64,000 bases of DNA from an uncultured Gemmatimonadaceae bacterium. GTDB lineage: Bacteria; Gemmatimonadota; Gemmatimonadetes; Gemmatimonadales; Gemmatimonadaceae. Positions 1 to 63,825 of the stretch are shown here, piece by piece. Below the pieces are notes generated by a model. It was not told the origin of the DNA, ran no database searches, and saw nothing but the letters and a program-made list of their open reading frames with translations. Where the stretch lies: contig CAWHHI010000020.1 in assembly GCA_963829055.1 (NCBI GenBank), forward strand, positions 320,001 to 384,000, written 5' to 3'. Positions within the stretch are counted from its first letter, which is position 1; the number at the start of each line of letters is the position of its first letter. The position numbers and the translations under genes were made by a program.

Positions 1-267
1 TCGCCGAACCAGTCGCGCATCGCATCGCCGCTTCCCGTTAGGCGCGTAGGCGATGGTCTTGCGACACCAGTCCACGTGCGACGCCGCGGCCACCGCATGC
101 TCCGCGAGCGTGCGATACGCCGTGAGCGCGACGTCGGGCCCGAGGTCCGCCGCAATGCGCGACTTGACGCGCCCCTTCTCGGGGGCGTTGGCGAAGATGA
201 CGAGCGAACGAGACGAAGCGATCACGACGACGGCAGCCGAGTTCGGAGAAGAACGTGCGGTGACCAT
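1..267 (-). CDS. TIGR04282/DUF2064-family glycosyltransferase-like protein, runs off window edge
   Basis: Manual translation from ATG 267: MVTARS...SLVIFANAPEKGRVKSRIAADLGPDVALTAYRTLAE, matching the family N-terminal IFAKAPxxGRVKTRL pattern. Confidence 0.7.
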   Translation of the reverse strand, partial: MVTARSSPNSAAVVVIASSRSLVIFANAPEKGRVKSRIAADLGPDVALTAYRTLAEHAVAAASHVDWCRKTIAYAPNGKRRCDARLVRR

Positions 268-418
268 CCTAACGGCAGGACGACCGAACGCGCACGAGCG
301 TTGCGTCACACGGCGCTATGCCCACTGTTTGTGTGACGCACACGGCATAGCGGCCGCAACCAGCGTCACCCAGCAACAAGCACGACCACCCAGCCACCAG
401 CCGCAGTCCCCGTTCCCG

Positions 419-1703
419 CTACTGTGCGACCTTCCCGTCCAGTTGCTGGATGGTCTTCGTCGACGGCGGCCGCTCCTTCTTGAGTCGCGCCGATACGACC
501 TCCGCCTGCTTCAGCACGCGCAGCACGTTGTCGCCCGCGAGCTTCTTCAGGTCGGCGTCCGTCCAGCCCCGACGCGACAGCTCGGCGAACAGATCCGGGA
601 ACTTCGAGACGTCCTCGAGGCCGACCACCAGATCCGTGATGCCGTCGAAGTCGCTGCCGATGCCCACGTGATCCACGCCGGCGACCTTCCGAATGTGCTC
701 GATGTGATCGGCCACCTGGCCTAGCGTCGCCTTGGGCTGCGGGTGCGCCTGCGTCCACGTCGTCCAGCTCACGCGTCGCACCGCGGCGCGTGTCGTTGCC
801 AAGCCGGCGTCGCGCATCCGCGACCGCCGCGGCCTGTGCATCGTCCCACTGCCTTCACCTCCTTCGACACGAACGACGTCACGAACGGCACCATCACCAC
901 GCCGCCGTTCTTCGGCAGCCGCGCGAGAATCGAGTCCGGCACGTTTCGCGCGATGATCGACCAGCTCGCGCGATCCCGAGTGCGAGAAGATCACCGGCGC
1001 CTCCGTCGCGTCGAGCGCGTCGCTCATCGTCCCCGGCGACACGTGCGAGAGATCCACCAGCATGCCGAGCCGGTTCATCTCGTGCACGACTTCCTTGCCG
1101 AAGGTCGTGAGCCCGCCGTGCTTCGGCCGAGTCGAGCGCGGCGTCGGCCCAGTCGAGCGTGACGTTGTGCGTGAGCGTCATGTAGCGTGCGCCGAGATCG
1201 TAGTAGACGCGCAGCGCACCTAACGAGTTCTCGATCGCGTGCCCGCCCTCGAGCCCGAGCAGCGAGCCGATCTTGCCGGCCTTGAACGACGACCGCACCG
1301 CCGTCCGCCGTGAGCGCCCACTGCAAGCCGCTCCGGATACTTCGCGATCACGCGGCGCGCGATGTCGAACTGCTCGAGCTGCACGCGCGCGTACCCCGAA
1401 TCCTTGATCTCGCCGGGGATGTAGATCGACCAGAACTGCGCGCCGACCATCCCCTTCTTCAGCCGCGCGAGATCGGTATGCCCCGGCGCCGTTCTTGCGA
1501 AGGTCGTACGCCTCGACGTCGTGCGGCGCCGTCGTCGCCTCGCGGATCGCCCACGGCAGATCGTTGTGCCCGTCGACGAGCGGCGTCGTGCTCAGCACGC
1601 GCCGGGCGCGCGCGATGTCCGCGGCGGATGGCGCGGGTGTGGGTGTCTGCGCGTCGGCGGCGAAAGCGGCGGTCACGAGAAGGGCGGCGGCGAGGAGTCG
1701 CAT
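419..1703 (-). CDS. Membrane dipeptidase (peptidase M19) with signal peptide; frameshifted
   Basis: Motifs [39 protein letters not shown] spread over ORFs 894..1787, 1220..1450 and 419..1087. Confidence 0.9.
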
Positions 1704-1809
1704 GGTCCAGAAGAAGCGAGAATGTGTCGAGGAGCTACTGCAGTCGCAGGCTGTGCAGCTCGCCAGCCTAACGGTAGCACCCAGCAACGTGAAGCGTCGA
1801 CCTCCGCCG

Positions 1810-1902
1810 TTCGGTTCCCCGTTCCCGGCTCCCAGTTCCCGTTCGCGCTGGTCCGATTCCCGATTCCCGCATCATTCCCGCATTCCCGATCCCCCATTCC
1901 CT
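1810..1902. repeat. Degenerate (TTCCCG/ATTCCCG)n short tandem repeat in intergenic region
   Basis: Repeated ttcccg/tcccga/attcccgc units upstream of the dipeptidase. Confidence 0.6.
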
Positions 1903-1975
1903 TGCGCCTCCTTCGACCGCTCATTTAGAACTCGTGTCGATGCCCCTGCCAGCAACGATCCGCACACTCGCCATC

Positions 1976-2490
1976 GTGACGTCGCTCTGCGCCGCGAGCC
2001 TGCCGTGAGTCCGAGGGTACGCTACCAGGGCTACGCCGATCGCACAGCCGGCGGTCGGCGACAGCGCACTCGTCGCCGTCTCCTCCTACCTCACGCTCGA
2101 CTCCACCGGCCCCGTTCGCTACGACAGCGCCGCCGCACAGTACGGTCGAGCGACTCTCGACGCAGTTCGGCGGCATCATGCGACCCGACACGGTCGCGGT
2201 CTTCCACCGACAGATGCTCGAGGGCCTCGATTCGCTCGTGCTCGCCATGCGCGTACTACGCGAGCGTGAAACGAGCTGCTCCGCCGAACGCACCATCGAC
2301 TGCGTCGACGCACGCGACTTCGGCTACATCCTCGGCTCCATGCGCAACGGGGCCCGCATCTACCTCGACGCGCGACGCCGCATGCGCGAGACCATGCGAT
2401 CGCTCGGCGCGAGCTTCCCGGATCCGCCAGCGGTGTCTCGCGTCCGCACTCGACCCGCGCCCAGCCGCCACGAGCGCCCCGCATCCGTGA
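1976..2490 (+). CDS. Hypothetical protein, probably frameshifted; boundaries uncertain
   Basis: Protein-like segment MRPDTVAVFHRQMLEGLDSLVLAMRVLRERE... in ORF 2178..3011 ahead of the oxidase. Confidence 0.4.
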
Positions 2491-3879
2491 CCGATCCCGC
2501 AGACGACGTCGACGTCGTCATCATCGGCGCGGGCGTGTCCGGCCTCGCCGCCGCGAAACGACTCACCGAAGCAGGCGTGACGCACCACGGTTCTCGAGGC
2601 GCGCAATCGCATCGGCGGGCGGATCTACACCACGCGCGACGAGCGCACGCCACTCCCGATCGAGATGGGCGCCGAGTTCGTGCACGGGTCGGCACCCGAG
2701 CTCGTCGAGATCGTGCGGGCGTCGAAGCTGGTGGTCGCCGACACCTCGGCGAGCGCTGGCGCTCCGAGCGCGGGAAGCTCACGAACCTCGACGACGAGAA
2801 TTACTGGCAGCAGCTCGCGCACGTCATGGAGCGGCTCGACCCGAAGCGAACACCCGACCGCTCGTTTCAGGAGTTCCTCGATACGAAGCCCGGTGGGCAG
2901 TCGCTCGCGAAGCAGCGCACGCTCGCGCGCGAGTACGTGTCGGGGTTTCACGCCGGCGATCCGGAACGCGATGAGCGAACGCTGGCTCGCAGACGGCGGC
3001 ATGCCCGCTGACGAGGATGAAGAAGCGTCAGGGACGCGATCCTCGACGGCTACGACCACGTGCCCGCCGGCGCTCGCCACGGCGGGCTTCCGCGTTAGGC
3101 TCGCGCACGTCGTGCATGCAGATCGTCTGGGAGCCGGGGAGCCGTCGAGGTCCGCTATCCGTCCCGGCCGGCCGATGGGCTCGCGCACCAACGGTGCGAT
3201 TCGCGCGCGTTCGGCGATCATCACCGTGCCGCTCGGCGTGCTCCAGCACACGACGGGCGACGACGGTCGTCACGTTCACCCCCGACGTCGCTGACATTCG
3301 ACGAGCCGCCAGTCAGCTCGCCATGGGGTCGGTCGCCCGCATCACGCTGCTGTTTCGGGAGCCGTTCTGGGAGGCACGAGCAATGCAGCGAAAGACCGGC
3401 GGTCGCTCGCTGACCGATCTGTCGTTTCTCCACTCGTCCGACGATGAGGTCCCGGTGTGGTGGACGTCAGCTCCAGTCCGAACGCAGCAACGCTCGTAGG
3501 GTGGACCGGCGGGCCGAAGGCCGCGCGGCTCGTCGCGCGCGGACCGGCAGAGGTCGAGGCCCGCGCGATCGCGGCGCTCGCTCGCGTGCTCGGGATGCAA
3601 CGTCGTCGCGTCGAGTCGCTCGTCGAGGCGTGTTGGTATCACGACTGGCAGCCGATCCGTTCACCCGTGGCGCGTACAGCTATGGCCTGGTCGGCGGAAG
3701 CGACTGCGCGAAACACCTCGCCCGGCCGGTCGGACGAAGACGCTGTTCTTCGCCGGCGAGGCCGCCGACGGCGAAGGTCGCACCGGGACCGTGCACGGCG
3801 CGATCGGCACCGGCTACCGCGCCGCGGCGGCCGTGCTGCGCCTAACGACGCGCGCGCGTCTCGCGCCCGCGGACGATGA
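2487..3879 (+). CDS. Flavin monoamine oxidase family protein; frameshifted
   Basis: [32 protein letters not shown] and [10 protein letters not shown] motifs in successive frames. Confidence 0.85.
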
Positions 3880-4576: not shown

Positions 4577-5494
4577 ATGCGTTTCCTCATCATCGGAGCC
4601 GGCGGTATCGGGGCGTATTCGGCGGCGAGCTCGCTCGCGCCGGCCACGAGGTCACGATGTTCGCCCGCGGCGCACACCTCGACGCCATGCGAGCGCAACG
4701 GCCTCACGGTCCGCGAGCCCGAGGGCGAGTTCGTCGCGCGCGTCGGCGCGACGGACAGTGTCGACGAGCTCCCAGCGCCGACGTCGCCGTCGTCGCGGTG
4801 AAGAGCTACTCGCTGCGCCGACGTCACTTCCCGTCGTGCGCACTCGCCGCCGAGCGAGGCGCCGACGTGGTCCCGCTGCTGAACGGAGTCACCGCGGCCG
4901 ACGAGCTCATCGCCGGTGGCGTGCCACGATCCACACGTGCTCGGCGGACTCGCTCGCGTGAGTGTGGTGCGAACGGAGCCGGGCGTCGTCGAGCGACGGA
5001 GCGGTTTCAACAGCATGGTCGTCGGCGAATTGGGCGGCGGGACTGAGCGAGCGCGCGACGGCGATCGCCGACGCCTTGCCAGCGCGCGGGCGTCGACGCC
5101 CGCGCGTCGGCCACGATGGACGTGGAGCTCTGGCAGAAGTACGTGTTCATCACCGCCATGGCCGCCGTGTGCGGGCTCGGCTCGCACGTCGATTGGCCCG
5201 GTGCGCGAGGCACCCGGCGGCCGTCGCCTCATCCAGCGGGCGGTCACGGAGGTCGTCGATGTCGCGCGCGCTCGTGGAGTCCCGCTTCCCGACGACGAAG
5301 CGCCGCGAACCTCCGCGTACATCATCGACACGCTGCCCGCGGCCATGAAGCCGAGCTTTCTGCTCGACCTCGAGAGCGGCGGACCAACGGAGCTCGACAC
5401 GCTGAGCGGGGCGGTCTCGCGGTTCGCGGCCGAAGCGGGCATCGAGACCCCGGTCCACGAGACGGCGACGGCCGCGCTCGGCGTTAGGCGTTAG
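4577..5494 (+). CDS. panE: Ketopantoate reductase family protein; frameshifted
   Basis: MRFLIIGAGGIG, VAVKSY, PLLNGV, LWQKYVF, MKPSFLLDLESGGPTELDTLSG. Confidence 0.8.
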
Positions 5495-5699
5495 CCGACC
5501 ACGAGTGTGACGGCCGGCGGCCGGCAGTGGCAGTCGAACTGCGTGTACAATGTGATGTTCCTCGCTGTTTCCGGCCAGGACCAGTTACATTCGCGCGGTT
5601 CGCTGTGCCGTCTCGCCGACCGGCCGTCCGATCGTGGTCCGTCGCGACTCGTCATCCTCCGGCGCCGCCGCCAGCTCGACTTCCACGGCCCCTAACGCG

Positions 5700-8487: not shown

Positions 8488-8733
8488 ATGGCCGACTCCG
8501 GCTTCCCGACACGCGACCTCGGCGCCTAACGCCAGCATCGACGGCGACATCGCGGTGCTCCTCGATCGCGTGTGCGCCAGTCTGCCGCACGACTACACGA
8601 AGCAACTCGTCCGCGACGTCGTTCGACTGAAGCTCGGGCTGGGATTCGAGGGCGACGTGCGCGACTACCTCAAGCGACGCAGCGGCGAGTATCGCCGCGG
8701 TGCGGCGGTCGTCGAGGAACAGCGACGAAGTAG
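8488..8733 (+). CDS. Small hypothetical protein, similar to 24040..24289; probably frameshifted
   Basis: AGGAG upstream of ATG 8488; segment IAVLLDRVCASLPHDYTKQLVRDVVRLKLGL. Confidence 0.5.
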
Positions 8734-8749: not shown

Positions 8750-11421
8750 TTACTCCGTCCGAGTGCCGTCGCCGGATCGGCTCGGCTCGCGTACGTCGCC
8801 GGCACCCACGTCGCGACGAGCGCCGTCAGCGACCAGCACCGCGGACACGGCGATGAACGTCAGCGGATCCTTCGACGCGACGCCGAAGAGCAGCGTCTGC
8901 ATGAGCCGCGTCGCGAGCGAGCGCACCGACCGTGCCGATCACGAGCCCGAACGACTACCAGCCGCAGGCCATTCCGAACGACGAGCCACCGCACGTCGTT
9001 CGCCTGCGCACCGAGCGCGAGCCGGATCCCCATCTCCCGCACTCGGCGACGCGCCATCTGCGCCATCACGCCGTAGACGCCGACGACGGCCAGCGCCAGT
9101 CCGACGCTCGCGAATAGCAGCAGCAGCGTCGTGAGGAAGCGCTCGCGCGCGAGCGACTGCGCGCGCACTTCGTTCATGGTCACGGATGGACTCGAGCGCG
9201 AGCGACCGGTCCAGCTCCGCGACCGTGCGGCGGATCGCCGGACCTAACGACGCGGGATCGCCGGCGGTTCGCAGCACCATGAACATACCGTTCGTCGGCG
9301 ACTGCGCGAGCGGCTCGAACACCTCGATCTGCGGCTCGAGGCTGAGCTTCGTCTGATGCTGGCTCTTCACGACACCGACGATCGTGTTCCACGTCGACGT
9401 GGAGTCCGGGTCCTTGTCGAACGTGATCCGCTTGCCGATCGGATCCTGTCCCTTGAAGTGCTTCTTCGCGAATGCCTCGTTGATGACCACGACCTGCGGG
9501 CCGTTCGCGCGGTCGTCGGCCGTGAACGCTCGCCCGGCGAGCACCGGCGTCTTCATCGACCTTGAAGATAGTCCGGCGTCACGCGGCGATGCAGCGACCT
9601 CGCTCCCGTACGTGCCCGCCGGCCAGCCCTGCGACGGTGAAGTCGCTCGTAGTAGCCCGAGTTGTCGAGCGAGAGCTGCGAGACGCCGCCGACCCCCTGT
9701 ACGCCCGGAATGCCGCGCAGCCGCTCCTCCAGCCGCGTGAAGAACGAGAGGACCTTCTCGCCGGTGTCGTACCGCGCGCCCGGGAAGCACGAGCTTGGCG
9801 GCGAGAACGCCATTCGGGTCGAAGCCCGGATCGACGTGCTCCAGGCGGAGCAGGCTTCGCACGAGCAGACCGGCGCCGACGCTCAGCATGAGCGCGAGCG
9901 CGACCTCACCGATGACGAGACGCTCGCCCCACCGCCGGATCCGGCGACTCTCGCTGCCGCCTCGGCCACCTTCCTTGAGGGCGTCGAGCGGAAGGCGTCG
10001 GCTCGACCACAGCGCCGGCGCTATCCCGAACAGCAGGCCGCTCACCGTCGTGATGGCGAGCACGTAGGCGAGCACGACCCAGTCGAACTCGAACCGGGAG
10101 ACGCGCAGCATGCCGGCGGGCTGCATGGCCTGGAGCGCCCGCGTGCCCCACCAGCCTAACGCCACGCCGGCTGCGCCACCGACCACGGACGTGACGAGGC
10201 TCTCGGTCAGGGCCTGCCTGACGAGCCGTCGCCGGCCCGCACCAAGGGCGAGTCGCAGCGCGGCCTCGCGCTCCCGTCCCGCCGCCTTCACCAGCATCAG
10301 GTTGCCGACGTTCGCGCAGGCGATGAGCAGCAGCAGCCCGACGGCGCCGAGCAGGACGAGCAGCGGCAGCCGCGTGTCGCCGATGAGGAACTCGTGCAGT
10401 GGCGTCATCCCCGCGCCCATGGCTTTGTTGGTCTGCGGATAGTCGCGCTGCAATCGCTTCACGACGGCCTGCAGCTGTGCGTCGGCCGTCTCCTGCGTCA
10501 CGCCCGGCTTCAGGCGTGCAACCACGCTCACCCAGTGGGCGCGACGGAAGAACACCTGCTGTCGATTGTTCGGATTCCACCGCCACGGCTGCCAGAGATC
10601 GACCTCCGTCGTTCGGGTACGCGAAGCGAGGCGGGCATGACGCCGACCACCTGCACGGGGCTCCCATCGAGCTGGATCGTTCGGCCGATCACGCGCGGGT
10701 CGCTGCCGAACCGGTCGCGCCAGAGCCGATGGGACAGCACGGCGACGCTCTGGTCGGTGCGCCACGTCTCGGCGTCCGGTGAATGTCCTGCCTAACGCCG
10801 CGCGGGCGCCGAGCACCGAGAAGAAGTTGCCCGTGCCGAAGGCCGGCTTGACGATCGTCGGCTCACCACCGTCCGAGAGCGTCGACGCGCCGAACGCGTC
10901 GGCGTAGCCCATGACGTCCGCGAAGGACGCAACCTGCTCCTTCCAGTCGAACATGTTGGCCGGGGCGGCCACCTCCTTGTACCACCCCTTCTCCGGGTTT
11001 TCCTCCCACAGCATGTAGAGCTGCTCGGGGTTCGGGAACGGGAGCGGCCGCAGGATGACGGCATTCACCGCCGAGAAGATGGCGGTGTTCGCACCGACGC
11101 CGAGTGCGAGCGTGAGTATCGCGGCCGCCGCGAGCGCCGGCGTGCGACGCATGGTTCGCAGTGTGTATCGCGTGTCGGCGACGAGCTCCTCGACGGGGCG
11201 CGCCGCGTAGACGTCGTGGTGCGCCTCGCGCGTCTGCGTCAGCCCACCGAACTGCACCAGCGCGTGTCGCCGCGCCTCTGCTCGGCTCATGCCGAGGCGA
11301 ACGTTCTTTTCCGTTTCCTGCTCGATGATGAAACTCGATCTCGTCGTTCAACGCCTTCTCGGCCGCGCGGGGAAACAGCAGTGCGCGTAGCCGAGCGGTG
11401 AATGCCCTTGATGGCGGCCAT
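8750..11421 (-). CDS. ADOP-family duplicated ABC permease (MacB_PCD/FtsX); frameshifted
   Basis: N-terminal EIEFH...EARRHALVQFGG, LALGVGANTAIFS, LLLLIACANVGNL, REMGIRLALGA, C-terminal ADPATAL. Confidence 0.9.
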
Positions 11422-11484
11422 GGTGGCTCCGGGAGGCGAGCCCGCGGTCCACCGCTGGCGCGACCTCGTAAAATGTCGTGCTCG

Positions 11485-11950: not shown

Positions 11951-12146
11951 CAGACAGGATTGCACGATTGACAGGATTGGACGGCGTTGCATTCGGGCTG
12001 GCTTACGCAACGAGCCGGGAATGAGGGGAACAGCCGCTCGGACGCCACTCTCTCCGAGATGTGTCCACATTCGTTAGGCCGGCCGAGTCGCCGCTCGATA
12101 TGTAGGCGGTCTGTTAATCCTGTCCATCCTGTCAATCCTGTCTCTG
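11951..12146. repeat. Palindromic repeat element family A, copy 1
   Basis: Arms of GACAGGATT-type 9-mers and AATCCTGTC-type 9-mers; interior similar to 43023-43231. Confidence 0.85.
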
Positions 12147-13064: not shown

Positions 13065-13200
13065 CTACGGCGGATACCGCTGCAGGTACTGGAGATCATC
13101 CGCGTCCTTGCGCACGACGTAGATCGAGCGCGTTCCGAAGCCGACGATCCGCCAGTCGTTAGGCACGTCGACAGAGAACGCAGGCGCGCCTCGCGCGCGA
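13065..13200 (-). pseudogene. Orphan C-terminal fragment of a beta-propeller-type protein
   Basis: VDVPNDWRIVGFGTRSIYVVRKDADDLQYLQRYPP-stop; upstream sequence runs into a REP element. Confidence 0.5.
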
Positions 13201-52920: not shown

Positions 52921-53583
52921 ATGAGCTCAGCGACCTTGCCTAACGTCTCGACGAAACCGACCGACGCTCACCCCACACCGATCGTGTTCGTCGTCGACGA
53001 CGATGTGTCGGTACGCGAGTCGTTGGAGCTGTTGATTCACTCCGCCGGCTGGTCCCCGGAGACGTTCCCGTCCGCGGCGGCATTCCTGGCGAGGCCTCGT
53101 GTCGACGTTCCGAGTTGCCTGGTGCTCGACGTCTCGCTCCCCGACCTCAACGGCCTCGAGCTTCAGACGCGCATTGCCGACGATCGGTTCGAGCTGCCCA
53201 TCATCTTCATCACGGGGTACGGCGATGTGCCGATGACCGTCCGCGCGATGAAGGCCGGCGCCGTCGAGTTCCTGACGAAGCCCTTCAACGACGACGTGCT
53301 GTTGGGCGCCATCGCGGGTGCGCTCGAGCGGAGCAGCGCCGCACTCGGTCACGAGGCGGCGGTACGCGACGTCCGGGAGCGATACGCCTCCCTCAGCCGC
53401 CGCGAGCGGGAAGTGATGGCACGTGTGGTCTCGGGGATGCTCAACAAACAGATCGCCGGTGAGCTTCAGATCAGCGAGATCACCGTGAAGGCGCACCGTG
53501 GCAAGGTGATGCGAAAGATGAAGGCCGACTCGGTTGCCGACCTGGTGACCATCGCGGCGAGGCTCAAGATCCGTCATTCGTGA
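52921..53583 (+). CDS. FixJ/NodW-family response regulator
   Basis: VVDDDVSVRESL..LDVSLP..FLTKPF..LSRREREV..LNKQIA..TVKAHRG. Confidence 0.95.
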   Translation: MSSATLPNVSTKPTDAHPTPIVFVVDDDVSVRESLELLIHSAGWSPETFPSAAAFLARPRVDVPSCLVLDVSLPDLNGLELQTRIADDRFELPIIFITGYGDVPMTVRAMKAGAVEFLTKPFNDDVLLGAIAGALERSSAALGHEAAVRDVRERYASLSRREREVMARVVSGMLNKQIAGELQISEITVKAHRGKVMRKMKADSVADLVTIAARLKIRHS

Positions 53584-53620
53584 CGGAGAAGTCGCGATCG
53601 TCATCGCCTAACGTGGGAAA

Positions 53621-53672: not shown

Positions 53673-55040
53673 CTAGGTCCGCAGTGATGTGCGCAATGAG
53701 CTGAAGCCCTTGCGCATCTCGCCAACGAAGAGCTCCGGCTGCTCCCACGCCGCGAAGTGCCCGCCTTTCGGGAGCTTGTTGAAGTAAATCAGCTTGGGAT
53801 ACGCGCGTTCGGCCCAACTCTTTGGAGCTGCGTAGATCTCGTCCGGAAAGACAGTCACGACAACGGGGATCTGGACGTGCCTTGGGTCGAAGAAGCCGCC
53901 CTTTGCCGTTTGTGTATCGTCCCAATATAGGCGCGCCGACGAGACCGCCGTGTTTGTCAGCCAGTACATCGTGATGTTGTCGAGAATGTCGTCTCGCGTT
54001 AGGCCCTCGGGCTTGCCGTCAAAGACGCGCGCTATCAGCGCGTAACTGCGCGCGTCGTGGTCGAGTATCCACGCCGCCAGGCCGACGGGTGAATCCGCGA
54101 TCGCGTAGAGTGTCTGCGGCCGGAGCGACATCTCCTGCGCGTACGCCAGGCCCTTCAAATAGAACACGGCGAGCTGATCCCACGCGTTGCGTTCGTCGGC
54201 CGACAGGGTGGGTGGCGGCGGGCTTCCCCCAAAGATTGCCTTGCTGATCTCGGGCGGAACCGTCGCCGGCATGTTGGTGGAGATGCCGAGCAGCTCAGGA
54301 GGTGCCAGCAGACCCATCTTCTCCGAGACGGCGTTGCCCCAATCGCCACCCTGCGCCACGAACTTCGTGTATCCGAGGCGCTTCATCAGAGTCGTCCACG
54401 CACGTGCGACGCGTGCCGGGTCCCACCCGGGAGCGGTTGGCTTGCCCGAAAATCCATGGCCCGGCAGCGACGGGATCACCACATCGAACGCATCCTCGGC
54501 TTTCCCACCATGGGCAACCGGGTCGGTCAGTGGGGCGATGACCTTCATCTGCTCGATGAACGAGCCCGGCCATCCATGCGTGATGATGATCGGCATCGCA
54601 TTCTTTTCCTTGGACTTCACGTGAATGAAGTGAATGTCCAGGCCATCGATGTTGGTGATGAAGTTCGGAACCGCATTGATCTTCGCCTCGGCCTTGCGCC
54701 AGTCGTGCTCCGTGGCCCAGTAGCTCGCGAGCTTCTGCGTCGTCGCGAACTGGACACCCTGCGATGCATCGCTGACCGTTTCTTTCTCGGGCCATTTCGT
54801 TGCCTTGATGCGTCGGCGCAGATCGACCACGTCGGCTTCAGGAATACTCACACGAAATGGGCGAATGTCGGTCGTACCAGTGCCTGTCTGTGCTGCAACA
54901 TCAGTCGGAGTCGCAGTCGTTGCTCCAGTCATAGCGTCCAACCTCCTGGGAAAAGCGAGCAGACCCAGCTGGTTCGCGGCAACGGTTGCGGCCGCAGCAC
55001 CAAGAAAGCGTCGGCGATCGAGATCGTGCATTGTGGTCAC
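53673..55040 (-). CDS. Epoxide hydrolase paralog 2 with Tat leader
   Basis: DRRRFLG; HGWPGS, QGGDWG, GGHFAAWEQP. Confidence 0.95.
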   Translation of the reverse strand: MTTMHDLDRRRFLGAAAATVAANQLGLLAFPRRLDAMTGATTATPTDVAAQTGTGTTDIRPFRVSIPEADVVDLRRRIKATKWPEKETVSDASQGVQFATTQKLASYWATEHDWRKAEAKINAVPNFITNIDGLDIHFIHVKSKEKNAMPIIITHGWPGSFIEQMKVIAPLTDPVAHGGKAEDAFDVVIPSLPGHGFSGKPTAPGWDPARVARAWTTLMKRLGYTKFVAQGGDWGNAVSEKMGLLAPPELLGISTNMPATVPPEISKAIFGGSPPPPTLSADERNAWDQLAVFYLKGLAYAQEMSLRPQTLYAIADSPVGLAAWILDHDARSYALIARVFDGKPEGLTRDDILDNITMYWLTNTAVSSARLYWDDTQTAKGGFFDPRHVQIPVVVTVFPDEIYAAPKSWAERAYPKLIYFNKLPKGGHFAAWEQPELFVGEMRKGFSSLRTSLRT

Positions 55041-55282: not shown

Positions 55283-55347
55283 TGCCTCGCCCGCTCTCAA
55301 CATCTAACGCGCAATCCACCAGGTATTGCCTAACGCTGGTGGTGTGA

Positions 55348-55749: not shown

Positions 55750-55840
55750 GTGGATCTTCTCCGTCCTGACCACTGGAGTGATGGAATGCGGGAGCAGACG
55801 ACGCGCACGTTAGGCGCATCGTCTGCTCCCTGACAACGCG

Positions 55841-57283
55841 TTACCGCAGCGACTTGAACGCCGCGCGCAGCTCCGCCGCGAACAGCTCCGGGTACTCCCA
55901 CATGGCGAAGTGACCGCCTCTGTCGACTTCGTTGAAGTAGCTCAGTGTGGGGAAGGCACGACGGGCCCAGGGCTCCTGGGCGCGAAGGATTTCGTCCGGG
56001 AACAGGGTGACGGCCACCGGCACCTTGATCTCGGCGGACTTCTGGTCGCCAGCACTGGTCAGATTCGTTCCCCGGTTCTCCCAGTAGATCCGCGCCGACG
56101 AGGCGGCGGTGTTCGTCAGCCAGTACAGCGAGAAGTTGTCCAGCACGTCGTCCCGCGTCGGTGACTGCTTGGGGTCCTTGCCGTATGACCACTTCGTGAA
56201 CCCCGAGTGCTGGAGCATGAACCCCGCGAGGCCGGCGGGGGAATCCGTGACGCCATAGCCGACCGCCTGCGGCCGCGCGCCCATCATCGTTAGGTAAGCC
56301 AGGCCCCCGCCACCCACGTACGCTCCCAGGTCCCTGACGGCCAAGCGCTCCTTCTCGGACATCGCCGCCAGCGCGGCCTTGTCGCCGCCAAGCGCGCCGC
56401 CTACTTCGGCAGTGATCACCGCCGGGAAGTTGGTGTGGATGCCGAGCAGCCCCGCCGGCGCCTGCCGGCCCATCGCTTCGACGACGCCCGCGCCCCAGTC
56501 TCCGCCCTGCGCGACATAGCGCGTGTACCCCAGCCGCTTCATGAGGACGGCCCACGCGGCGCCGATACGCTCCAACCCCCAACCCGCCTCGGTCGGATGC
56601 CCCGAGAACCCGAAGCCAGGCAGCGACGGAATCACGACGTCGAACGCATCCTCGGCGCGACCGCCGAACTTCGTCGGATCGGTGAGCGGGCCAATGAGCT
56701 TGATCTGCTCGAACACGGAGCCCGGCCATCCGTGCGTGATGATCAGCGGCATCGCGTTAGGGTGGGGCGACTTGACGTGGATGAAGTGGATGTCGACGCC
56801 GTCAATGTTCGTCATGAACTGCGGCAGAGCGTTGAGCTTTGCCTCACCCTTGCGCCAGTCGTAGCCGTTGCCCCAGTAGCGCACCAGCTCCTGGAGCTGC
56901 GCCAGCTGCGCGCCCTGCGACGCATCGGCGACGGTTTCCTTGTCGGGCCACCGCGTCATCTGGAGCCGGCGGCGGAGGTCGGCCACTGCTTCGTCCGACA
57001 CGCGTGCCCGGAACGGTCGGATCGAGGTGTCTGCCGTTCCCGCGCGAGTCGCCGGCGTTGCAAGCGGCAGGTCAACGGTGCTGAGCTCTGTCATGGTCTT
57101 GCTCCGATTGAGTGTGGCGCGAGCATCGCGGCTCGCGGTGACGGCCTGGGCCTGCGCGAGCGCTGACAGCGACACGAAAAGACCCAAGCTGAGTGCCCAG
57201 ATCGAGAGGAGATGGGTGGTGCTGTCCCGGGCTCGCCCGACGTCCCTGGTGACGCCGGCGGCCTCGATAGTCGTGGTTCCCAT
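55841..57283 (-). CDS. Epoxide hydrolase paralog 3 with Sec-type leader
   Basis: GGAG SD; hydrophobic segment ending ALAQA; HGWPGS, QGGDWG, GGHFAMWE. Confidence 0.95.
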   Translation of the reverse strand: MGTTTIEAAGVTRDVGRARDSTTHLLSIWALSLGLFVSLSALAQAQAVTASRDARATLNRSKTMTELSTVDLPLATPATRAGTADTSIRPFRARVSDEAVADLRRRLQMTRWPDKETVADASQGAQLAQLQELVRYWGNGYDWRKGEAKLNALPQFMTNIDGVDIHFIHVKSPHPNAMPLIITHGWPGSVFEQIKLIGPLTDPTKFGGRAEDAFDVVIPSLPGFGFSGHPTEAGWGLERIGAAWAVLMKRLGYTRYVAQGGDWGAGVVEAMGRQAPAGLLGIHTNFPAVITAEVGGALGGDKAALAAMSEKERLAVRDLGAYVGGGGLAYLTMMGARPQAVGYGVTDSPAGLAGFMLQHSGFTKWSYGKDPKQSPTRDDVLDNFSLYWLTNTAASSARIYWENRGTNLTSAGDQKSAEIKVPVAVTLFPDEILRAQEPWARRAFPTLSYFNEVDRGGHFAMWEYPELFAAELRAAFKSLR

Positions 57284-57420: not shown

Positions 57421-57552
57421 CCTAACGATTTCTCGCCATGACCGCCCGGCCACGGCTCGTGCCGATCCGCGCGAAAGCGAGATAGCCGGGTAGCACAGCG
57501 GCGCGCCTAACGGGCGCGCCACTGACTGTACGACCGGCGAGCTGGCGGTGAG

Positions 57553-58996
57553 CTACCGGACCGATTTGAACGCCGCGCGCAGCTCCGCCGCGAAGAGCTG
57601 CGGCTGTTCCCAGGCGGCGAAGTGCCCACCTTTGTCGACCTTGTTGAAGTAGATGAGCTTGGGGTACGCCCGCTCCGTCCAGCTCCGCGGAGCCTCGTAC
57701 TGCTCGCTGGGAAAGACGCTCACGGCCACCGGAATGGAGACGCCCTTCGTATTGAAGAAACCGCCCTTGTATTCCCAGTAGAGACGCGACGCGGAGACCC
57801 CCGTGTTCGTGAGCCAGTAGAGCGTGATGTTGTCGAGGATCTCGTCCCGCGTCAGTTCGCCCGTGGCGCTCGTCTTCCGCGTTAGGGCCGAGGCGACCGC
57901 CACCGCCGGCTGGCCATCAGCGTCATTGTGGTCGAGCAGCCACGCGGCCAACCCGACCGGCGAATCGGCGATGCCGTACAGCGTCTGCGGGCGCGCCGCC
58001 ATGTACTTGGCGTAGTCGACCTGCTTGAACGTCCGTACCAGCTGCTCGTAGGCGCGTCGTTCCTCAGCTGAGAGACCCGATGGCGGCGGGGCTCCGGCCA
58101 GGAGGGCCTTGTCGACGTCCGCTGGAACGGTGGCGGGCATGTTGGTGTGGATGGCGAGCAATCCGGCAGGTGCTTGCAATCCCATCTGGTCGACGACGAA
58201 CGCGCCCCAGTCGCCGCCCTGGGCCACATAGCGGGTGTAGCCGAGGCGCTTCATCAGTTCTGCCCAGGCTCGGCCCATGCGCTCGGGGCCCCAGCCGGTG
58301 CTCGTCGGTTTGCCGGAGAAGCCGTAGCCCGGCATCGACGGGATCACGACGTCGAACGCGTCCTCTGCTCGGCCGCCGTACCTGGTCGGGTCGGTGAGCG
58401 GGCCGATGAGCTTGAGCTGCTCGATGACCGAGCCGGGCCACCCGTGGTTGATGACGAGCGGCAACGCATTCGCGTGTTTCGAACGCACGTGAATGAAATG
58501 AATGTCCAGCCCGTCGATCGTCGTGATGAACTGCGGGAGGGCATTCAGCTTCGCTTCGACCTTGCGCCAGTCGTAGTCCGTCGCCCAATAGCGCGCGAGT
58601 TGCTGCATCGTCGCCAGCGGCACGCCCTGCGATTCATCGGCAACGGTCTCCTTCTCGGGCCACTGCGTCGCGAGAATTCTTCGACGGAGGTCGGCGAGCT
58701 TCTCGTCGGACATGCTGACGCGGTACGGTCGGATCGACTTGTCCTCCGATGCGGTGCGCGGTGCCGGGTGCCGCGAGCGGCGCATCCACGGTGTTCAGCT
58801 CTGTCATGGTCGTGCTCCGGTTGAGTGATGGGCGAGCGTCGCGGCTCGGGCTGGAGACCTGAGCGTGCGCAAGCGCGGAGAGCGACGTCCACATGGCAAT
58901 GCCGAGCGCGACGATGAAGCAGAGACGGACCATGCCGTCTTTCGCCGGGCGTGCCTCGGGCCTGGTGTCCCAGCTCTCGATGCTCACGTTTCTCAT
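57553..58996 (-). CDS. Epoxide hydrolase paralog 4 with Sec-type leader; frameshift near 58780
   Basis: GGAGG SD; leader ending ALAHA; HGWPGS, QGGDWG, GGHFAAWEQP. Confidence 0.9.
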
Positions 58997-59149: not shown

Positions 59150-62100
59150 ATGCCGCGTAAGATCAGCGTCATGGTGACCACCGGTGTACGCGCTGCAGTC
59201 GCGTGCGCGTTCATCGCTGCCGCAGCGCCCACGCTTCGAGGCCAGCGTCCCCCGCCGGCGGTGGGCGAGCTGGAACACACGGTGTGGACGATTCGCGATG
59301 GCGCGCCGCCCGGCGTAACCGCGTTCGCCCAGTCGGCAGACGGAGTGCTGTGGATCGGCGCCACCACGGGGCTGTACCGATTCGATGGCGTACGCTTCGA
59401 GCTGTTCGAGCCACCCGCTTCGCAGCCGCTACCGTTCCTCTCCATCAGCGCGCTGCTCGCGCTCCCGGACAGCACACTCTGGGTTGGCTACACATTCGGC
59501 GGTGCAAGCGTGCTGGCCCGCGGGCGGGTGGTGAGCTACAGCCAGCGCGACGGCCTGCCCGAAGGAACGATCAACGCAATCGCGCGCGATTCAGCGGGAG
59601 ATATCTGGGCGGCTACGACAACCGGCCTCGCGCGACTGTACGGCGGCCGCTGGCAACGTATCGGCGCGGAGAACGGATACCCGGGCGGCCCGGCGTCCGA
59701 CCTTCTCGTCGACCGACGTGGAACGCTGTGGGCCCCGACGGGCGCTGGCGTCTTCGTCCTTCCGCGTGGCGCAATCCGATTCATGCGGCAGGCGCCTCCG
59801 CTCGATGCGGCGGGCAATGGCAGCGCTGGTGTACCGCGTGAGGCGCCGGACGGTTCCGTCTGGGGTGCGTCCACCACGCTCGGCCTAACGCGACTCTCCG
59901 ATTCCGCTGGGCGAGCCACGCCAGCTCGGCCGGCGGCCGAGCGCCTGCGCGAAGCGTGGTCGCTCTTCGTGGACCGTCGCGCGCACGCATGGCTCGACGG
60001 GCCCGGCGGCCTCGTCCGAGTCTCGCTCACGGCGAGGAATGCCAGTGAGTCCGTGAGCAGCCTAACGCCGGCCGGGTTCCCGGTGGAGCGAGTCCCGCTG
60101 CGAACCGGCCCGCAGGGGTACTCGGCGTTCGAAGACCGCGAAGGCAACGTGTGGGTCGGAACGGCCGGCGGCATCGAGCGGTTCCGGCAGACGAAGCTCA
60201 CACCCGTCGTGCTCCCGGAACCCATGGATGGGCCTGCGCTCGCGGCTGCGGCCGACGGATCAGTGTGGCTCGCAAGCTACGTCAACACGCTGCTCGAGGT
60301 CGGCGATCGTGTGGTCGTCCACGCCGGAGTTCCCGCCAACATCACGTCTGCCTACCGCGACCTCAGTGGCGGCGTGTGGCTCGGCGGCCCAGGGGGGATG
60401 TGGAACGCGCCAGGCGGCTCGTCTTCCTCGAGCACTCGCTTCACGCGCGTCCCGCTGCCCGACGAAGCCGGACCCGGCGAAGTCCAGGCCATCGCGCGGA
60501 CGCCCGACGGCGACCTGTGGGTCTCGATCCGCGGCCAGCGAATGAAGGGCGTCTTCCGACGACGCGATGGCGTGTGGTCACGCGCTCCGTTGCCAACGGG
60601 TTTTGCGGACCAGCTCGCGCTGACGGTCGTCGCCGACAGCGGGGGTCGGATCTGGCTGGGGTACACGGGAAATCGCCTCCTGCTCGCCACCGGTGATTCG
60701 ATTCGCGTCTATTCCGACGGCGATGGGCTTCAGCTCGGCAGCGTGACCGCGCTCGTAGTGCGCGGCCCCCGCGTCTGGATCGGCGGCGAGTCGGGCCTAA
60801 CGAGCCTGGTCGACGACCGCTTCCGATCCGTGGCCGCCACGGAGACGCTCCGTGGCATCACAGGGATCATCGAGGCCCCGGACGGCGACATCTGGCTCAA
60901 CGGCGTCGGCGGCGTCACCCACATCGAGGCCACCGAGATCCGTCGTGCGCTCGAGAATCCCGCTTATCGCGCGCACGCGGAACGCTTCGATTACCACGAC
61001 GGTCTCAACGGCCAGGCCCCGCAAATCCGGCCGTTCCCCACGGCGATCCAGGGCACCGACGGACGTCTGTGGTTCACGACCGAAAGAGGCGTCGCGTGGA
61101 TCGATCCGACCAACATCACGCGAAACAGGCTTCCACCTCCGGTTCAGATTCGCGCGATGAGTGTGGCGGGCAAGCAATACGACGTCCACGATCGCGTTGC
61201 GCTACCCGCGCGCACCACCCAGATCCAGATCGCGTACACAGCACTGAGTCTCGCGATGCCGGATCGTGTCAGGTTCCGCTACCGGCTCGCGGGCGTCGAC
61301 ACGTCGTGGGCAGAAGCCGGGACGCGACGCGAGGCATTCTACACCAACCTCGAGCCAGGGTCGTATCGATTCCAGGTGATCGCGGCCAACGAGGATGATG
61401 TCTGGAACGAGACCGGGGCGAGCGTGGTCTTCGACATCCCGCCCACGTTCACCCAAACAAAGGCGTTCGTGGCATTGATGGCGACCGCCGCCCTGTCTGC
61501 CGTGCTGCTTCTCGCGCTCTGGCGGCAGCGGCAGTTGGCCCGCACGCTCCGTGCGCAGTTCGAGGGCACGCTCGCCGAACGCGCACGAGTCGCCCGGGAG
61601 CTGCACGACACGCTGCTCGGCGACATGGCCGGCGTGGCGATGCAGCTGAATGCGGGTGCGCGGCGCATCGACGCAGCCGGCGGCGCCAACGCGCCGGTCG
61701 TCGATCTGCTGTCGGCACTGAGCAAACAGGTCCAGCGCTCGCTCGTCGAGGCCAGGCGTTCGGTGACAGCCATGCGCGGGTCGCCTGAAGAGCTACCTCC
61801 GCTCCACGAGCAGCTCGCCAACGCGGCGCGCCGGACGTTCGCCGACAGCGGAATCGCCCCGCATGTCGAGCACGCGGGGTCCGCGCGGCCGTACCCACCT
61901 AACGTGGAAGCGGAGATCGTCGGCATTGTGAGCGAGGCAATGGCGAACGCGCGCAAACACGCCGGGTGCGAACGCGTAACGATCACGTGCAGCTACGCGC
62001 CACGGGAGTTGCGTGTGCGTGTGCGCGACGACGGCCGGGGATTCGATCAGTCGCAGGCGACGCCGACCGGTCATTGGGGTCTGGTCGGGATGCGTGAACG

Positions 62101-62233: not shown

Positions 62234-62252
62234 CGGACAGCCTCGCCTCGAC

Positions 62253-62266
62253 TCCCCAAATGGGGA
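62253..62266. promoter_or_regulatory. Candidate NarL/LuxR-type palindrome
   Basis: TCCCCA-AA-TGGGGA between the kinase and the hydrolase/regulator genes. Confidence 0.5.
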
Positions 62267-62349
62267 AGCGCAAGACCGGTCATCTCGGCGATGTTCTCCT
62301 GGGTGCGGCGGGGGCATTGTTCCGCACACCACCATACGCGGAGAGACCC

Positions 62350-63166
62350 ATGGAGTCGCACGCCCTCGTCCAGGCCTTCGGAATGACCGCCCAGGGCACG
62401 CACTTCCAGGCGTCGCGCTTCCCGAATCAGAGATCCCGGTATCGCGAATCGAAGATGCCAGCGCGACCAACCATCATCCTCGTTCACGGCGCGTTCGTCG
62501 ACGGCTCGGCTTGGCAAGCGGTGCAGAGGATCCTGCGGGACGACGGCTACACCGTCCGCATTGCGCAGAACCCGACGACATCGCTGGCCGACGACGCGGC
62601 CGCAATTCGCCGCGCCGTGGACGCGCAGGACGGGCCGGTGATCCTCGTCGGCCACTCGTACGGCGGCGCCGTCATCACCGAGGCGGGCAGCCATCCGAAG
62701 GTCACGGGCCTCGTCTACATCGCGGCGTTCGCGCCCGACGAGGGCGAGTCCGTTTCCTGGCTCATGAATGATCCAACGCCGGGCGCGCCAGTGCCGCCCA
62801 TTGTCCCAGCGCAGCAGGACGGATTCCTGCTGCTCGATCGCACGAAGTTCGCGGCATCGTTCGCGGCCGACGTGGACGCGGAGACCGCGCGGCACATGGC
62901 CGAGTCGCAGGTACCCTGGGGGATCGGGGCGCTGACTGGTGCCGTCACCGAACCGGCGTGGCGGAGGAAACCCAGCTGGTATCTCGTTGCGGCCGACGAC
63001 AGAGATGATCCCTGCGCGAGCGCAATGGGCGATGGCGAAACGTGCGGGGTCACGCGTGACGGAGACCGGCGGGAGCCACGCGCTGTACGTGTCGAAGCCG
63101 GCCGTCGTGGCGTCGGCCATCGCCACCGCAGCGCGTGGCACGACCGTGGCCGCGAGATGTGCCTAA
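62350..63166 (+). CDS. Alpha/beta hydrolase (Abhydrolase_6 type); frameshift near 63000; start may be 62455
   Basis: ILVHGAFVDG, LVGHSYGG; C-terminal DxMIP..GGSHALY continues in ORF 62939..63166. Confidence 0.9.
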
Positions 63167-63183
63167 CGACTACAACAGGCGAC

Positions 63184-63825
63184 ATGATGATGTCCGAAGG
63201 CGTGCGCATCCGCGTTCTCACGGCCGACGACCATCCCGTGGTTCGCGCCGGCATCGCGGCCATGATCGGGATCGAGCCCGACATGGACATCGTGGCCGAG
63301 GCGCGAGACGGAGCGGAAGCCATTGCGCTGTTCGAGGCGCATCGCCCGGATGTCGTACTGATCGACCTCCGGATGCCGAAGTTGGACGGCGTGTCGGCGA
63401 TTCGCGCGATTCGCGCCATCGAGCCTAACGCACGCGTAATCGCCCTCACGACCTACGACGGCGACACCGACATTCATCGCGCGCTGAGCGCGGGCGCGTG
63501 CGCGTACCTGATCAAGGATGCGATGATCGAGCAGCTCGTTGCCGCCATCCGCTCGGCCGCCTCTGGGAAACGGGTCATTCCCTCGGACGTCGCGACCAGG
63601 CTCGCCGAATTCACGCCGAGGGTAGATCTGAGTGCCCGCGAGCAGGAAGTGTTGGGCCACGTCGCCAGAGGACTCGGGAACAAGGAGATCGCGCAGGCGA
63701 TCGGCCGATCGGCCGAGACGGTGAAGGCTCACCTCGAGAGTGTTTTCGAAAAGCTTGGCGCCAGGGATCGCACGCACGCGGTGACGATCGCGCTGCAGCG
63801 CGGGATCATACACCTCGATGAGTGA
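63184..63825 (+). CDS. NarL-family response regulator
   Basis: IRVLTADDHPVVRAG..IDLRMP..LSAREQEVL..NKEIA..ETVKAH. Confidence 0.95.
   Translation: MMMSEGVRIRVLTADDHPVVRAGIAAMIGIEPDMDIVAEARDGAEAIALFEAHRPDVVLIDLRMPKLDGVSAIRAIRAIEPNARVIALTTYDGDTDIHRALSAGACAYLIKDAMIEQLVAAIRSAASGKRVIPSDVATRLAEFTPRVDLSAREQEVLGHVARGLGNKEIAQAIGRSAETVKAHLESVFEKLGARDRTHAVTIALQRGIIHLDE

Follow-up and report, generated by a model that had tools for sequence, protein, structure and literature searches.

The 64-kb stretch analysed here (the window; G000:C20:320001-384000, GC content 62.5-69.6% across 4-kb windows) lies in G000, a metagenome-assembled genome (MAG) of a soil bacterium of the Gemmatimonadaceae that has 20 contigs, 7.78 Mb and 66.7% GC and is 86% complete with 4% contamination. 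Permease, padR, beta-propeller, multicopper oxidase, histidine kinase and hydrolase genes are found in it, and a short word, CCTAAC, recurs both in genes and in intergenic DNA (Table 1). The word was noticed in an earlier reading made from the letters only (the sequence-only reading), and every count given there was exact on recount: 71 CCTAAC/GTTAGG sites, 41 on the plus strand and 30 on the minus strand, of which 66 extend to CCTAACG. A further step takes 51 of these 66 to the octamer GCCTAACG. In 100 dinucleotide-preserving shuffles of the window, CCTAACG was expected 2.88 times (sd 1.71, largest 7) and CCTAAC 5.91 times. Beyond the earlier account, the core of the word is GCCTAACG, it coincides with the inverse core site of integron attC, it is family-wide with a bimodal distribution, and it is found in phages and in another phylum. 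Our best reading, offered tentatively, takes GCCTAACG for a self tag resembling uptake sequences, which molecular drive would have spread.

Table 1. Copies of CCTAAC and of its extensions in the 64-kb window (ORF, open reading frame)
Position	Strand	Form	Context
36..42	-	GCCTAACG	intergenic
268..274	+	CCTAACG, no 5' G	intergenic
1219..1225	+	CCTAACG, no 5' G	intergenic
1767..1773	+	GCCTAACG	intergenic
3093..3099	-	GCCTAACG	outside own gene calls
3841..3847	+	GCCTAACG	gene 3791-4303(+)
5482..5488	-	GCCTAACG	ORF 5201-5494(+)
5691..5697	+	CCTAACG, no 5' G	intergenic
8525..8531	+	GCCTAACG	intergenic
9243..9249	+	CCTAACG	MacB/FtsX permease gene 8939-11257(-)
10155..10161	+	GCCTAACG	permease gene 8939-11257(-)
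10791..10797	+	GCCTAACG	permease gene 8939-11257(-)
11483..11489	-	CCTAACG	TAA stop of padR 11485-11820(-)
12072..12078	-	GCCTAACG	intergenic
13157..13163	-	GCCTAACG	intergenic
13648..13654	+	GCCTAACG	permease gene 13414-16095(-)
14151..14157	-	GCCTAACG	permease gene 13414-16095(-)
15260..15266	+	GCCTAACG	permease gene 13414-16095(-)
16125..16131	-	CCTAACG	TAA stop of padR 16127-16459(-)
17962..17968	+	GCCTAACG	CN-hydrolase gene 17123-18091(+)
19154..19160	-	GCCTAACG	gene 18705-19763(+)
20193..20199	-	GCCTAACG	complement CGT-TAG-G gives TAG stop of ORF 19944-20198(+)
20985..20991	+	GCCTAACG	intergenic
22137..22143	-	GCCTAACG	intergenic
22410..22416	-	GCCTAACG	intergenic
25304..25310	-	GCCTAACG	beta-propeller gene 24918-26477(-)
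25825..25831	+	GCCTAACG	beta-propeller gene 24918-26477(-)
26154..26159	-	CCTAAC only	gene 24918-26477(-)
26972..26978	+	GCCTAACG	intergenic
27572..27578	-	GCCTAACG	gene 27035-27877(-), kept in G001 ortholog
29416..29422	+	CCTAACG	gene 29283-29786(-)
29838..29844	-	GCCTAACG	intergenic
30644..30650	-	GCCTAACG	intergenic
30842..30848	-	CCTAACG	intergenic
31912..31918	+	GCCTAACG	intergenic
36120..36126	-	GCCTAACG	multicopper oxidase gene 35632-36519(-)
37768..37774	+	GCCTAACG	Usp gene 37744-38640(+)
38191..38197	+	GCCTAACG	Usp gene 37744-38640(+)
39804..39810	+	CCTAACG	gene 38873-39895(-)
40988..40994	-	GCCTAACG	gene 40751-41449(-)
41545..41551	+	GCCTAACG	intergenic
42860..42866	-	GCCTAACG	intergenic
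43154..43160	-	GCCTAACG	inside dispersed ~240 bp repeat (~43002-43243)
43613..43619	+	CCTAACG	gene 43394-43906(-)
44124..44130	+	GCCTAACG	hydrolase gene 43928-44986(-)
44940..44945	+	CCTAAC only	gene 43928-44986(-)
45021..45026	-	CCTAAC only	TAA stop of DUF2007 gene 45022-45234(-)
45398..45404	+	GCCTAACG	intergenic
47554..47560	-	GCCTAACG	gene 47285-47773(-)
48337..48342	+	CCTAAC only	gene 47757-48377(-)
49002..49007	+	CCTAAC only	gene 48410-49795(-)
49762..49768	-	GCCTAACG	epoxide-hydrolase gene 48410-49795(-)
51216..51222	+	GCCTAACG	histidine-kinase gene 50796-52514(+)
51861..51867	+	GCCTAACG	histidine-kinase gene 50796-52514(+)
52377..52383	+	CCTAACG	histidine-kinase gene 50796-52514(+)
52939..52945	+	GCCTAACG	intergenic
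53607..53613	+	GCCTAACG	intergenic, directly after gene 52984-53583
53997..54003	-	GCCTAACG	gene 53673-54851(-)
55329..55335	+	GCCTAACG	intergenic
55808..55814	-	GCCTAACG	intergenic
56288..56294	-	CCTAACG	gene 55841-57319(-)
56755..56761	-	CCTAACG	gene 55841-57319(-)
57421..57427	+	GCCTAACG	intergenic
57506..57512	+	GCCTAACG	intergenic
57880..57886	-	CCTAACG	gene 57553-58713(-)
59884..59890	+	GCCTAACG	gene 59261-62233(+)
60061..60067	+	GCCTAACG	gene 59261-62233(+)
60796..60802	+	GCCTAACG	gene 59261-62233(+)
61898..61904	+	CCTAACG	gene 59261-62233(+)
63162..63168	+	GCCTAACG	gene 62191-63825(+)
63424..63430	+	GCCTAACG	gene 62191-63825(+)

The whole of G000 contains 6,391 CCTAACG heptamers, at 0.64-1.09 per kb on each of the 20 contigs and about equally on the two strands, and 5,004 of them have the 5' G that makes the octamer. 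GCCTAACG is by far the most over-represented 8-mer of the genome (z about 485 under an order-2 model). A ranking under a maximal-order Markov model was dropped because the sub-words of the word dominate such a model and hide it, and low-order models, with every copy of the word masked first for the genome-wide nulls, were used instead. Masked models of orders 1-4 predict 90-327 heptamers and 31-125 octamers, and the enrichment of GCCTAACG, 40-160-fold over these nulls, bears out what had been estimated roughly from the window. In the flanks of 6,390 sites, information was confined to positions -2 to +2, with G at -1 in 78% and G disfavoured at +1. It was close to zero beyond them, with no extension past the core of the kind seen in repetitive extragenic palindromes or miniature inverted-repeat transposable elements (MITEs), and the copies are therefore solitary 8-9-mers and not repeats.

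One-off variants in G000 generally stand at 0.6-1.8x the masked null and are not depleted genome-wide; an apparent depletion of neighbouring words was rejected as an artefact of unmasked counts. Those in excess over the masked null were GCCTAACA (435 copies, 33x), GCATAACG (583 copies, 10.5x) and GCCTAACC/T (8x), and the abundance of the first two hints at positions where a reader of the word tolerates change.

The word is imposed on coding sequence. Genes were called in G000 with our own codon-usage caller (6,572 genes, 73% coverage; frames and stops are reliable, starts are not), which places 3,971 sites inside genes, 481 on their edges and the other 1,939 beyond them, the last share being over-counted because of the 73% coverage. 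The coding sequence (CDS) set holds 3,989 copies, compared with 308-338 in five synonymous shuffles and 152-206 in five codon-order shuffles. These codon-aware nulls, against which the sequence-only reading had staked its claim of enrichment, are decisive. All four stop-free frames are in use, namely CCT-AAC-G (1,155 sites) and C-CTA-ACG (758) and, on the complement, xCG-TTA-GGx (1,560) and C-GTT-AGG (498). The xCG-TTA-GGx sites supply 1,560 of the 2,746 TTA codons in the CDS set. TTA, the rarest Leu codon (1.5% of Leu), is used in 1,564 of 4,334 xCG-Leu-GGx contexts, and 1,162 of 1,910 Pro-Asn-(G..) tripeptides are spelled CCT-AAC-G; permissive peptides are thus near saturation. The peptide PN[VADEG] occurs at 1.95x expectation, compared with 1.21x for a reversed control, and the amino-acid sequence has therefore been bent too. 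The pressure acts on the DNA word rather than on the protein.

Sites are placed where the cost is least. Of the 6,572 stop codons, 496 lie inside the word (271 TAA and 225 TAG), and the stops of both padR genes and of the DUF2007 gene (Pfam match 26.5 bits) do come from it, as had been proposed. Word density is 2-2.5x higher within the first 60 bp 3' of stops, and is 1.14 per kb in convergent spacers and lowest, at 0.75, in divergent spacers.

When GCCTAACG was counted in 301 Gemmatimonadaceae genomes (tallies that take in the unpublished G013, G051, G052, G150, G264, G282 and G309, on which no named example rests), the distribution was bimodal, with whole genera holding thousands of copies (rich) and others about ten (poor). 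Rich genera include that of G000 (g1; seven genomes, 2,501-5,112 copies per genome), g9 (seven, 4,115-6,360, up to 1.3 per kb), g62 (eight, 1,006-3,479), g69 (eight, 1,100-7,821) and g55 (eight, seven of them at 2,424-3,412 and the 64% complete G300 at 86). Seven others (g3, g11, g12, g36, g54, g59 and g81; 8-9 genomes each) have 2-54 per genome. Genus g56 is split, with five genomes at 3,244-4,141 copies and three, G124, G279 and G301, at 66, 8 and 4. Density across rich genomes is 0.6-1.8 per kb, equally on both strands. Judged by RpoB identity to G000, most rich genera are among its nearer relatives, but not cleanly, and the word is on or off by lineage. It is also present in a cultured, PacBio-finished isolate, Gemmatirosa kalamazoonensis KBS708, where two 50-kb megaplasmid samples carry 32 and 29 copies (about 0.6 expected) and GCCTAACG is the top 8-mer in both. 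No other hyper-abundant 8-mer that might be a different dialect was found among MsrA loci of at least 14 kb (46 of 80 loci); a candidate in L056 was rejected as a tandem repeat within a gene.

Individual sites are maintained in rich lineages. The genus-mates of G000 share only 65-75% DNA identity with it, and in 153 kb of alignments at 73% identity 36 of 98 G000 sites were kept, compared with 17.6% of all 7-mers. One-mismatch states were scarce at the aligned sites (10, compared with 23 with two mismatches). Around rpoB and rpoC in genus g56, pairs of rich genomes (89-95% identity) kept 90 of 104 sites vs 58.0% of all 7-mers, and rich-poor pairs (81-87% identity) had 0 of 71 sites in common vs 34.7% of all 7-mers. 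When codons were aligned for rpoB in 12 genomes and for rpoC in 10, the word occurred 57 times in eight rich genomes and once in four poor ones, and 7 of 20 word columns were common to two or more rich genera. Rich genomes have CGTTAGG, with TTA, where poor genomes have CGCTCGG, with CTC or CTG for Leu, a double synonymous change. Substitutions of many chemically different types (C>T, C>A, G>C, T>C and G>A) give rise to the word. It follows that the word itself is the target of the pressure, which a putative trans-acting factor specific to the lineage would set.

That the copies are an artefact, or belong to a mobile element or repeat, has practically no chance of being right. One site in the window (43154-43160) does lie inside a dispersed repeat, and the hits in poor relatives are attC repeats, but the flanks of the G000 sites are random past position 2 on either side. 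The word is equally abundant in short-read MAG contigs (named k141/k255; L008, L024 and L047) and in the PacBio-finished isolate, so the assembly artefact that had been envisaged as a refutation is dismissed. It is present in Illumina and PacBio assemblies of many genera and in orthologous rpoB and rpoC codons, and the flanks, the family survey and the rpoB/rpoC columns already refute this explanation.

As the sequence-only reading had held, the word is non-palindromic, GCCTAACG differing from its own reverse complement, and lacks strong strand polarity. No link of its orientation to GC skew or gene strand was found in G000 (windows of positive skew have 526 sites on plus and 570 on minus, those of negative skew 839 and 814; chi-square 167 for 145 windows), nor any polarity in seven other rich genomes; an apparent polarity in G226:C1 and G065:C2 was a listing-order effect, the actual DNA having mixed strands. 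Being non-palindromic and non-polar, the word is unlike Chi (RecBCD/AddAB) or the FtsK-orienting polar sequences (KOPS) and other architecture-imparting sequences. These too are short, non-palindromic, over-represented and lineage-specific, but they are strand-skewed with replication and far less enriched. Spacing is non-random, with a pair correlation of 0.28, 0.49 and 0.77 at 0-100, 100-200 and 200-300 bp and about 1 past 500 bp. Of the regularity that had been considered earlier, the mutual avoidance within about 300 bp stands, but no periodicity was found in G000. Returns thus diminish at short range.

DNA of deviant composition in G000 lacks the word, and uptake sequences likewise have a lower density in recently acquired DNA. 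Several stretches of 20-50 kb are free of the word (C6:5441-55039 at 70-72% GC, C6:600000-620000, C11:1-40000 and others); they are in part of 70-73% GC, some are at contig ends, and they contain housekeeping and metabolic genes, some of them split. These genes at deviant GC led us to reject prophages as an explanation, and the stretches are probably foreign or chimeric DNA, so that the word works as a contamination flag. One example of a split gene there is that for chorismate synthase, which is spread over two ORFs.

GCCTAAC and GTTAGGC are also the inverse core and core sites of integron attC. The attC consensus in an excerpt of PMC3053210 (RYYYAAC for the inverse core, GTTRRRY for the core) accommodates both, and the R'' of the class 1 aadB cassette reads GCCTAAC in the portion of PMC12901181 available; the chance of the top 7-mer core falling in the consensus is about 32 in 16,384. 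The few hits in poor relatives lie together on a single strand, 500-650 bp apart, and form the first eight bases of canonical attC sites. At seven array loci (L081-L087), 46 of 55 array-strand GCCTAACG hits extend to attC-like sites of 88-136 nt that end in GTTAGGC (38), GTTAGAC (7) or GTTAAGC (1), so that in arrays of these related Gemmatimonadales the G following the core matches as well. These loci, in the motif-poor Gemmatimonadales G021, G019, G023 and G029, are large cassette arrays with attC classes of 90-93 and 100-136 nt; the first 20 kb of G021:C95 contains 24 attC-associated hits. G000 itself encodes an IntI (C20:208041-208958(-)) that is just over the cut-off (265.7 bits, cut-off 265). 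Four attC-like sites lie upstream (C20:173525, 183882, 192696 and 205101), about 10 kb apart and not in a tight array; their R' arms read CGTTAGG(C/T), and both arms match the full word.

The copies could accordingly be binding or recombination sites (attI/attG-like pads or decoys) for IntI or a derivative of it, or the reader could have evolved toward the cassette end-motif. Integrons occur in many phyla, Gemmatimonadota and Verrucomicrobiota included, according to the part of PMC8618304 available, which matches the recurrence of the word across phyla. We nevertheless think an integrase-linked role unlikely. IntI (TIGR02249) was over the cut-off in 18 of 31 relatives, including the poor G007, G008, G009, G011, G012 and G016, while in the rich G002 and G004 none was found over it and in G006 the match was partial; IntI as the driver of richness was rejected because it is not co-distributed with word density. 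The sole integron integrase match in the very rich G014 consists of three consecutive frame-shifted pieces (C182:835-1781) and is probably a pseudogene. An attC spans 57-141 bp at the end of a cassette and forms an imperfect inverted repeat, whereas the G000 copies are solitary 8-mers in ordinary genes with no partner arm. Beyond 40 attC-like geometries, no attC structure was found among the 6,391 sites, nor any flank consensus outside positions -2 to +2, and attC arrays as the source of the copies were rejected on these grounds. Integrase insertion in E. coli needs only GWT, as stated in the available part of a preprint (10.1101/2022.09.11.507474). Nor is an integrase known to have an activity that would spread copies of an 8-mer within rpoB.

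A combination of the uptake and integron readings, also on the unlikely side, is an uptake or self-recognition tag whose specificity is the cassette end-motif; a reader of GCCTAACG would have been adapted by, or passed between, the Gemmatimonadaceae and Chthoniobacterales of soil. Of all foreign DNA that these cells meet, cassette arrays would carry the tag most densely, with one tag per 500-650 bp, and the cells' own chromosomes, plasmids and phages would have been filled by molecular drive as a by-product. Natural transformation would be coupled to cassette traffic across phyla in a cross-phylum soil 'DNA-sharing guild'.

Phages carry the word as well. A 17-kb phage contig with major head, scaffold, portal and terminase genes (G313) contains 31 octamers, and a provirus (G315) has 18 copies. 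In a 44,089-bp phage contig (G314, 98% complete), GCCTAACG is the top 8-mer, with 29 octamers vs 1.0 expected under an order-2 Markov model and 3 for a reversed-word control, and 19 of the 34 heptamers are spelled xCG-TTA-GGx. G314 encodes RecT, and no integrase was found among the 35 proteins tested.

The word also turns up in a second phylum. When metagenomes were scanned for paired GCCTAACGA, the matches included contigs of 55-60% GC with the word on both strands and nearly always A at +1; as the scan selects for two copies, only those beyond the first two are informative. The 20.4 kb of L347 contain 9 octamers (0.37 expected), and its AckA-Pta protein is 88% and 83% identical to Chthoniobacterales-labelled proteins and 80% identical to Candidatus Udaeobacter. 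L351 has 6 (0.36 expected), and its Rho is 97% identical to a protein labelled Verrucomicrobia; over full-length matches it shows at most 51% identity to any of 81 genomes sampling the Gemmatimonadota (including the unpublished G358). The word with A at +1 is thus enriched in Chthoniobacterales/Verrucomicrobia contigs. Low-GC viral contigs with same-strand hits (L191, L214, the L182 group and L235) were set aside, as their hits belong to longer unrelated repeats or homologous genes. In two of these, L191 and L214 (IMGVR_UViG_3300023212_000464 and _000371; 118 and 198 kb, 42% GC), an intergenic repeat of about 17 nt that contains the word, TCCCATCGCCTAACGGC, is conserved and always on one strand ahead of genes, and it probably serves the phage as a promoter or regulatory repeat, with no relation to the genome-wide word.

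After uptake, the other explanations rank as follows: a self-marker read inside the cell, a role tied to the integrase, a site for chromosome organisation and, last, biased repair. The first, with a nuclease, helicase or defence system that, Chi-like, would spare or repair word-bearing DNA, and with the reader a horizontally moving accessory gene, is a conceivable but not a likely alternative. Selection would in that case favour the word on chromosomes, megaplasmids and phages alike. Phages at or above host density, one of them with RecT and no integrase found, and the word on both G. kalamazoonensis megaplasmids argue for it. A mobile accessory reader would fit the on/off pattern between sister lineages and the second phylum, equal strand use would suit protection of ends from either side, and the short-range repulsion would fit diminishing returns. 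Against it stand the lack of polarity relative to GC skew, known Chi sites being strand-skewed, a 40-160-fold enrichment with 61% saturation of permissive sites, which is far beyond that of Chi, and the failure to find a candidate reader gene. Temperate Pasteurellaceae phages reach host-like densities of the uptake signal sequence (USS), and large lytic ones do not, in the part of PMC6776037 available. Since temperate phages of USS hosts accumulate USS too, the phage data do not decide between uptake drive and an intracellular reader.

The density of about one per kb on chromosome and megaplasmids, the use of both orientations and the conservation of individual sites would also suit a binding site for an abundant chromosome-organising protein (a nucleoid-associated protein, condensin or segregation loader) and selected for at roughly regular density on each replicon, and the exclusion over about 300 bp could be its footprint or spreading. 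We consider this improbable. Sister lineages of one genus that differ by about 4,000 vs fewer than 70 copies are hard to explain in this way, as are phages that copy the word; no candidate protein was found, and we know of no nucleoid-protein site with such enrichment.

A biased repair or methylation-linked conversion (HIP1-like or very-short-patch-like), in which a sequence-specific enzyme would resolve mismatches in favour of the word wherever DNA replicates in the cell, would naturally give host-like density in phages and plasmids and scarce one-mismatch states between orthologs, but it is very unlikely. The many kinds of change that create the word fit no single chemistry, one-off variants are not depleted genome-wide, and the repulsion over 300 bp is not predicted. 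The single-molecule real-time (SMRT) methylome of G. kalamazoonensis KBS708, one rich isolate, contains N6-methyladenine (6mA) only, at RGATCY, ATGCAC and CCAGN7TCA (PMC3974934), with no 6mA or N4-methylcytosine (4mC) mark at the word; 5-methylcytosine is not covered. Among five g56 genomes, Vsr (PF03852) was found in none, a C5-methyltransferase only in the poor G124 and G301, and a D12 methyltransferase in all five, and an N4/N6 methyltransferase was absent from the rich G066; none of the families PF00145, PF01555, PF02384 and PF02086 was specific to the rich ones. The highly iterated palindrome HIP1 (GCGATCGC) of cyanobacteria resembles GCCTAACG as a hyper-abundant octamer that is conserved beyond codon constraints and non-randomly spaced, but HIP1 is palindromic and methylated by cognate methyltransferases, and GCCTAACG is non-palindromic and carries no 6mA or 4mC mark in the one available methylome. 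The function of HIP1 is debated, and it has recently been proposed as an uptake signal (PMC13756078, in the part available).

If GCCTAACG is an uptake tag, it would be read as double-stranded DNA, in either orientation, by a putative lineage-specific trans-acting factor, and cells of rich lineages would preferentially take up fragments that bear it, a specificity of the kind known for the DNA uptake sequence (DUS) of Neisseriaceae such as Neisseria and the USS of Pasteurellaceae such as Haemophilus. Homologous recombination of such fragments would then act as a molecular drive, converting tolerated positions until permissive sites are nearly saturated. Uptake and drive are the best match to the whole set of features: the size and density of the word, its strand symmetry, override of codon choice and cheap placement, the repulsion between sites, their lack in foreign DNA, their conservation in place and their accumulation in phages. 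The strength of the enrichment looks like drive rather than site-by-site selection. In magnitude it appears closer to USS and DUS than to Chi. Like DUS and USS, GCCTAACG is a short non-palindromic word with about one copy per kb, present on both strands and within genes as well as spacers; it takes precedence over codon choice, is commoner toward gene 3' ends and scarcer in foreign DNA, and is kept in place, lineage-specific and accumulated by phages (temperate ones for DUS/USS). Unlike them, it belongs to a host phylum without known transformation, is one word in two phyla and not a set of family-level dialects, shows no enrichment of inverted terminator pairs and coincides with the attC core. 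We infer the existence of a reader, the competence of these bacteria and a bias in their uptake. The sequence-only reading had proposed a genome-wide signal under selection. A directional pressure is evident. Among the natures it suggested, an uptake tag is the closest fit, the KBS708 methylome and the g56 methyltransferase survey speak against a modification site, and a nucleoid-protein site is neither supported nor excluded.

Several observations weigh against an uptake tag. A basic uptake toolkit, which speaks for the tag, is present (ComEC in 5/5 genomes, ComEA-like HHH_3 in 31/31, type IV pilin motifs in 5/5), but the competence genes tested are found in rich and poor genomes alike and so do not explain the on/off pattern. 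None of ComEC, ComEA-like, Vsr, the four methyltransferase families or the type IV pilins tracks richness. The dedicated DUS receptor in Neisseria is the minor pilin ComP. Matches to ComP_DUS (PF16732) were sub-threshold in G066 and G166 (19-21 bits, cut-off 27.3) and lacking in G000, G301 and G279, and the pilin family under them is present in 295 of 301 genomes regardless of richness; this lead was set aside. Literature searches found no report of competence or uptake bias in any Gemmatimonadota and no description of GCCTAACG as a genome-wide signal; to our knowledge, only two proteobacterial families have established tags for sequence-specific DNA uptake. In Neisseria, paired DUS act as terminators; in G000 the orientation of neighbouring sites is nearly random and inverted pairs are not enriched. 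The uptake model does not predict the identity with the attC core. Should the phage G314, for which no integrase was found among the 35 proteins tested, be virulent, its load of the word could not stem from an uptake drive. Members of a single family normally have different uptake dialects already, and one word in two phyla therefore needs transfer of the reader between phyla or convergence on a pre-existing word such as the cassette motif.

A word comparable in strength to DUS and USS thus fills the genomes of abundant, mostly uncultured soil bacteria. The on/off switch between sister lineages provides natural contrasts for finding the reader, and the recurrence in a second phylum and the identity with the integron cassette motif add to the interest. 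As the word is present in G. kalamazoonensis KBS708, which is cultured and has a finished genome, its function is directly testable. The word may serve as a signature for host prediction and binning of soil phages and contigs, as a flag for contamination and chimeras in MAGs, and as a design rule for transforming Gemmatimonadota.

Some further features of G000 and the window were noted. Of the G000 contigs, C19 is lowest in both GC (64.9%) and word density (0.64 per kb). At C19:47991-52509 (L167), rpoB is split between two frames that overlap (ORFs of 1,098 and 413 aa), pointing to a frameshift or to an indel in the assembly. Two dispersed repeats are found in the window, one of about 340 bp (~26595-26945) with dozens of copies in G000 at 81-88% identity, some matched on both strands, and the ~240 bp repeat listed in Table 1, with copies at 88-95% identity. 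Both families are MITE-like and probably the same as the 'family' elements of the sequence-only reading. Each padR gene is paired with a gene for a MacB/FtsX-type permease (8939-11820 and 13414-16459), an arrangement common in Acidobacteria and Gemmatimonadota.

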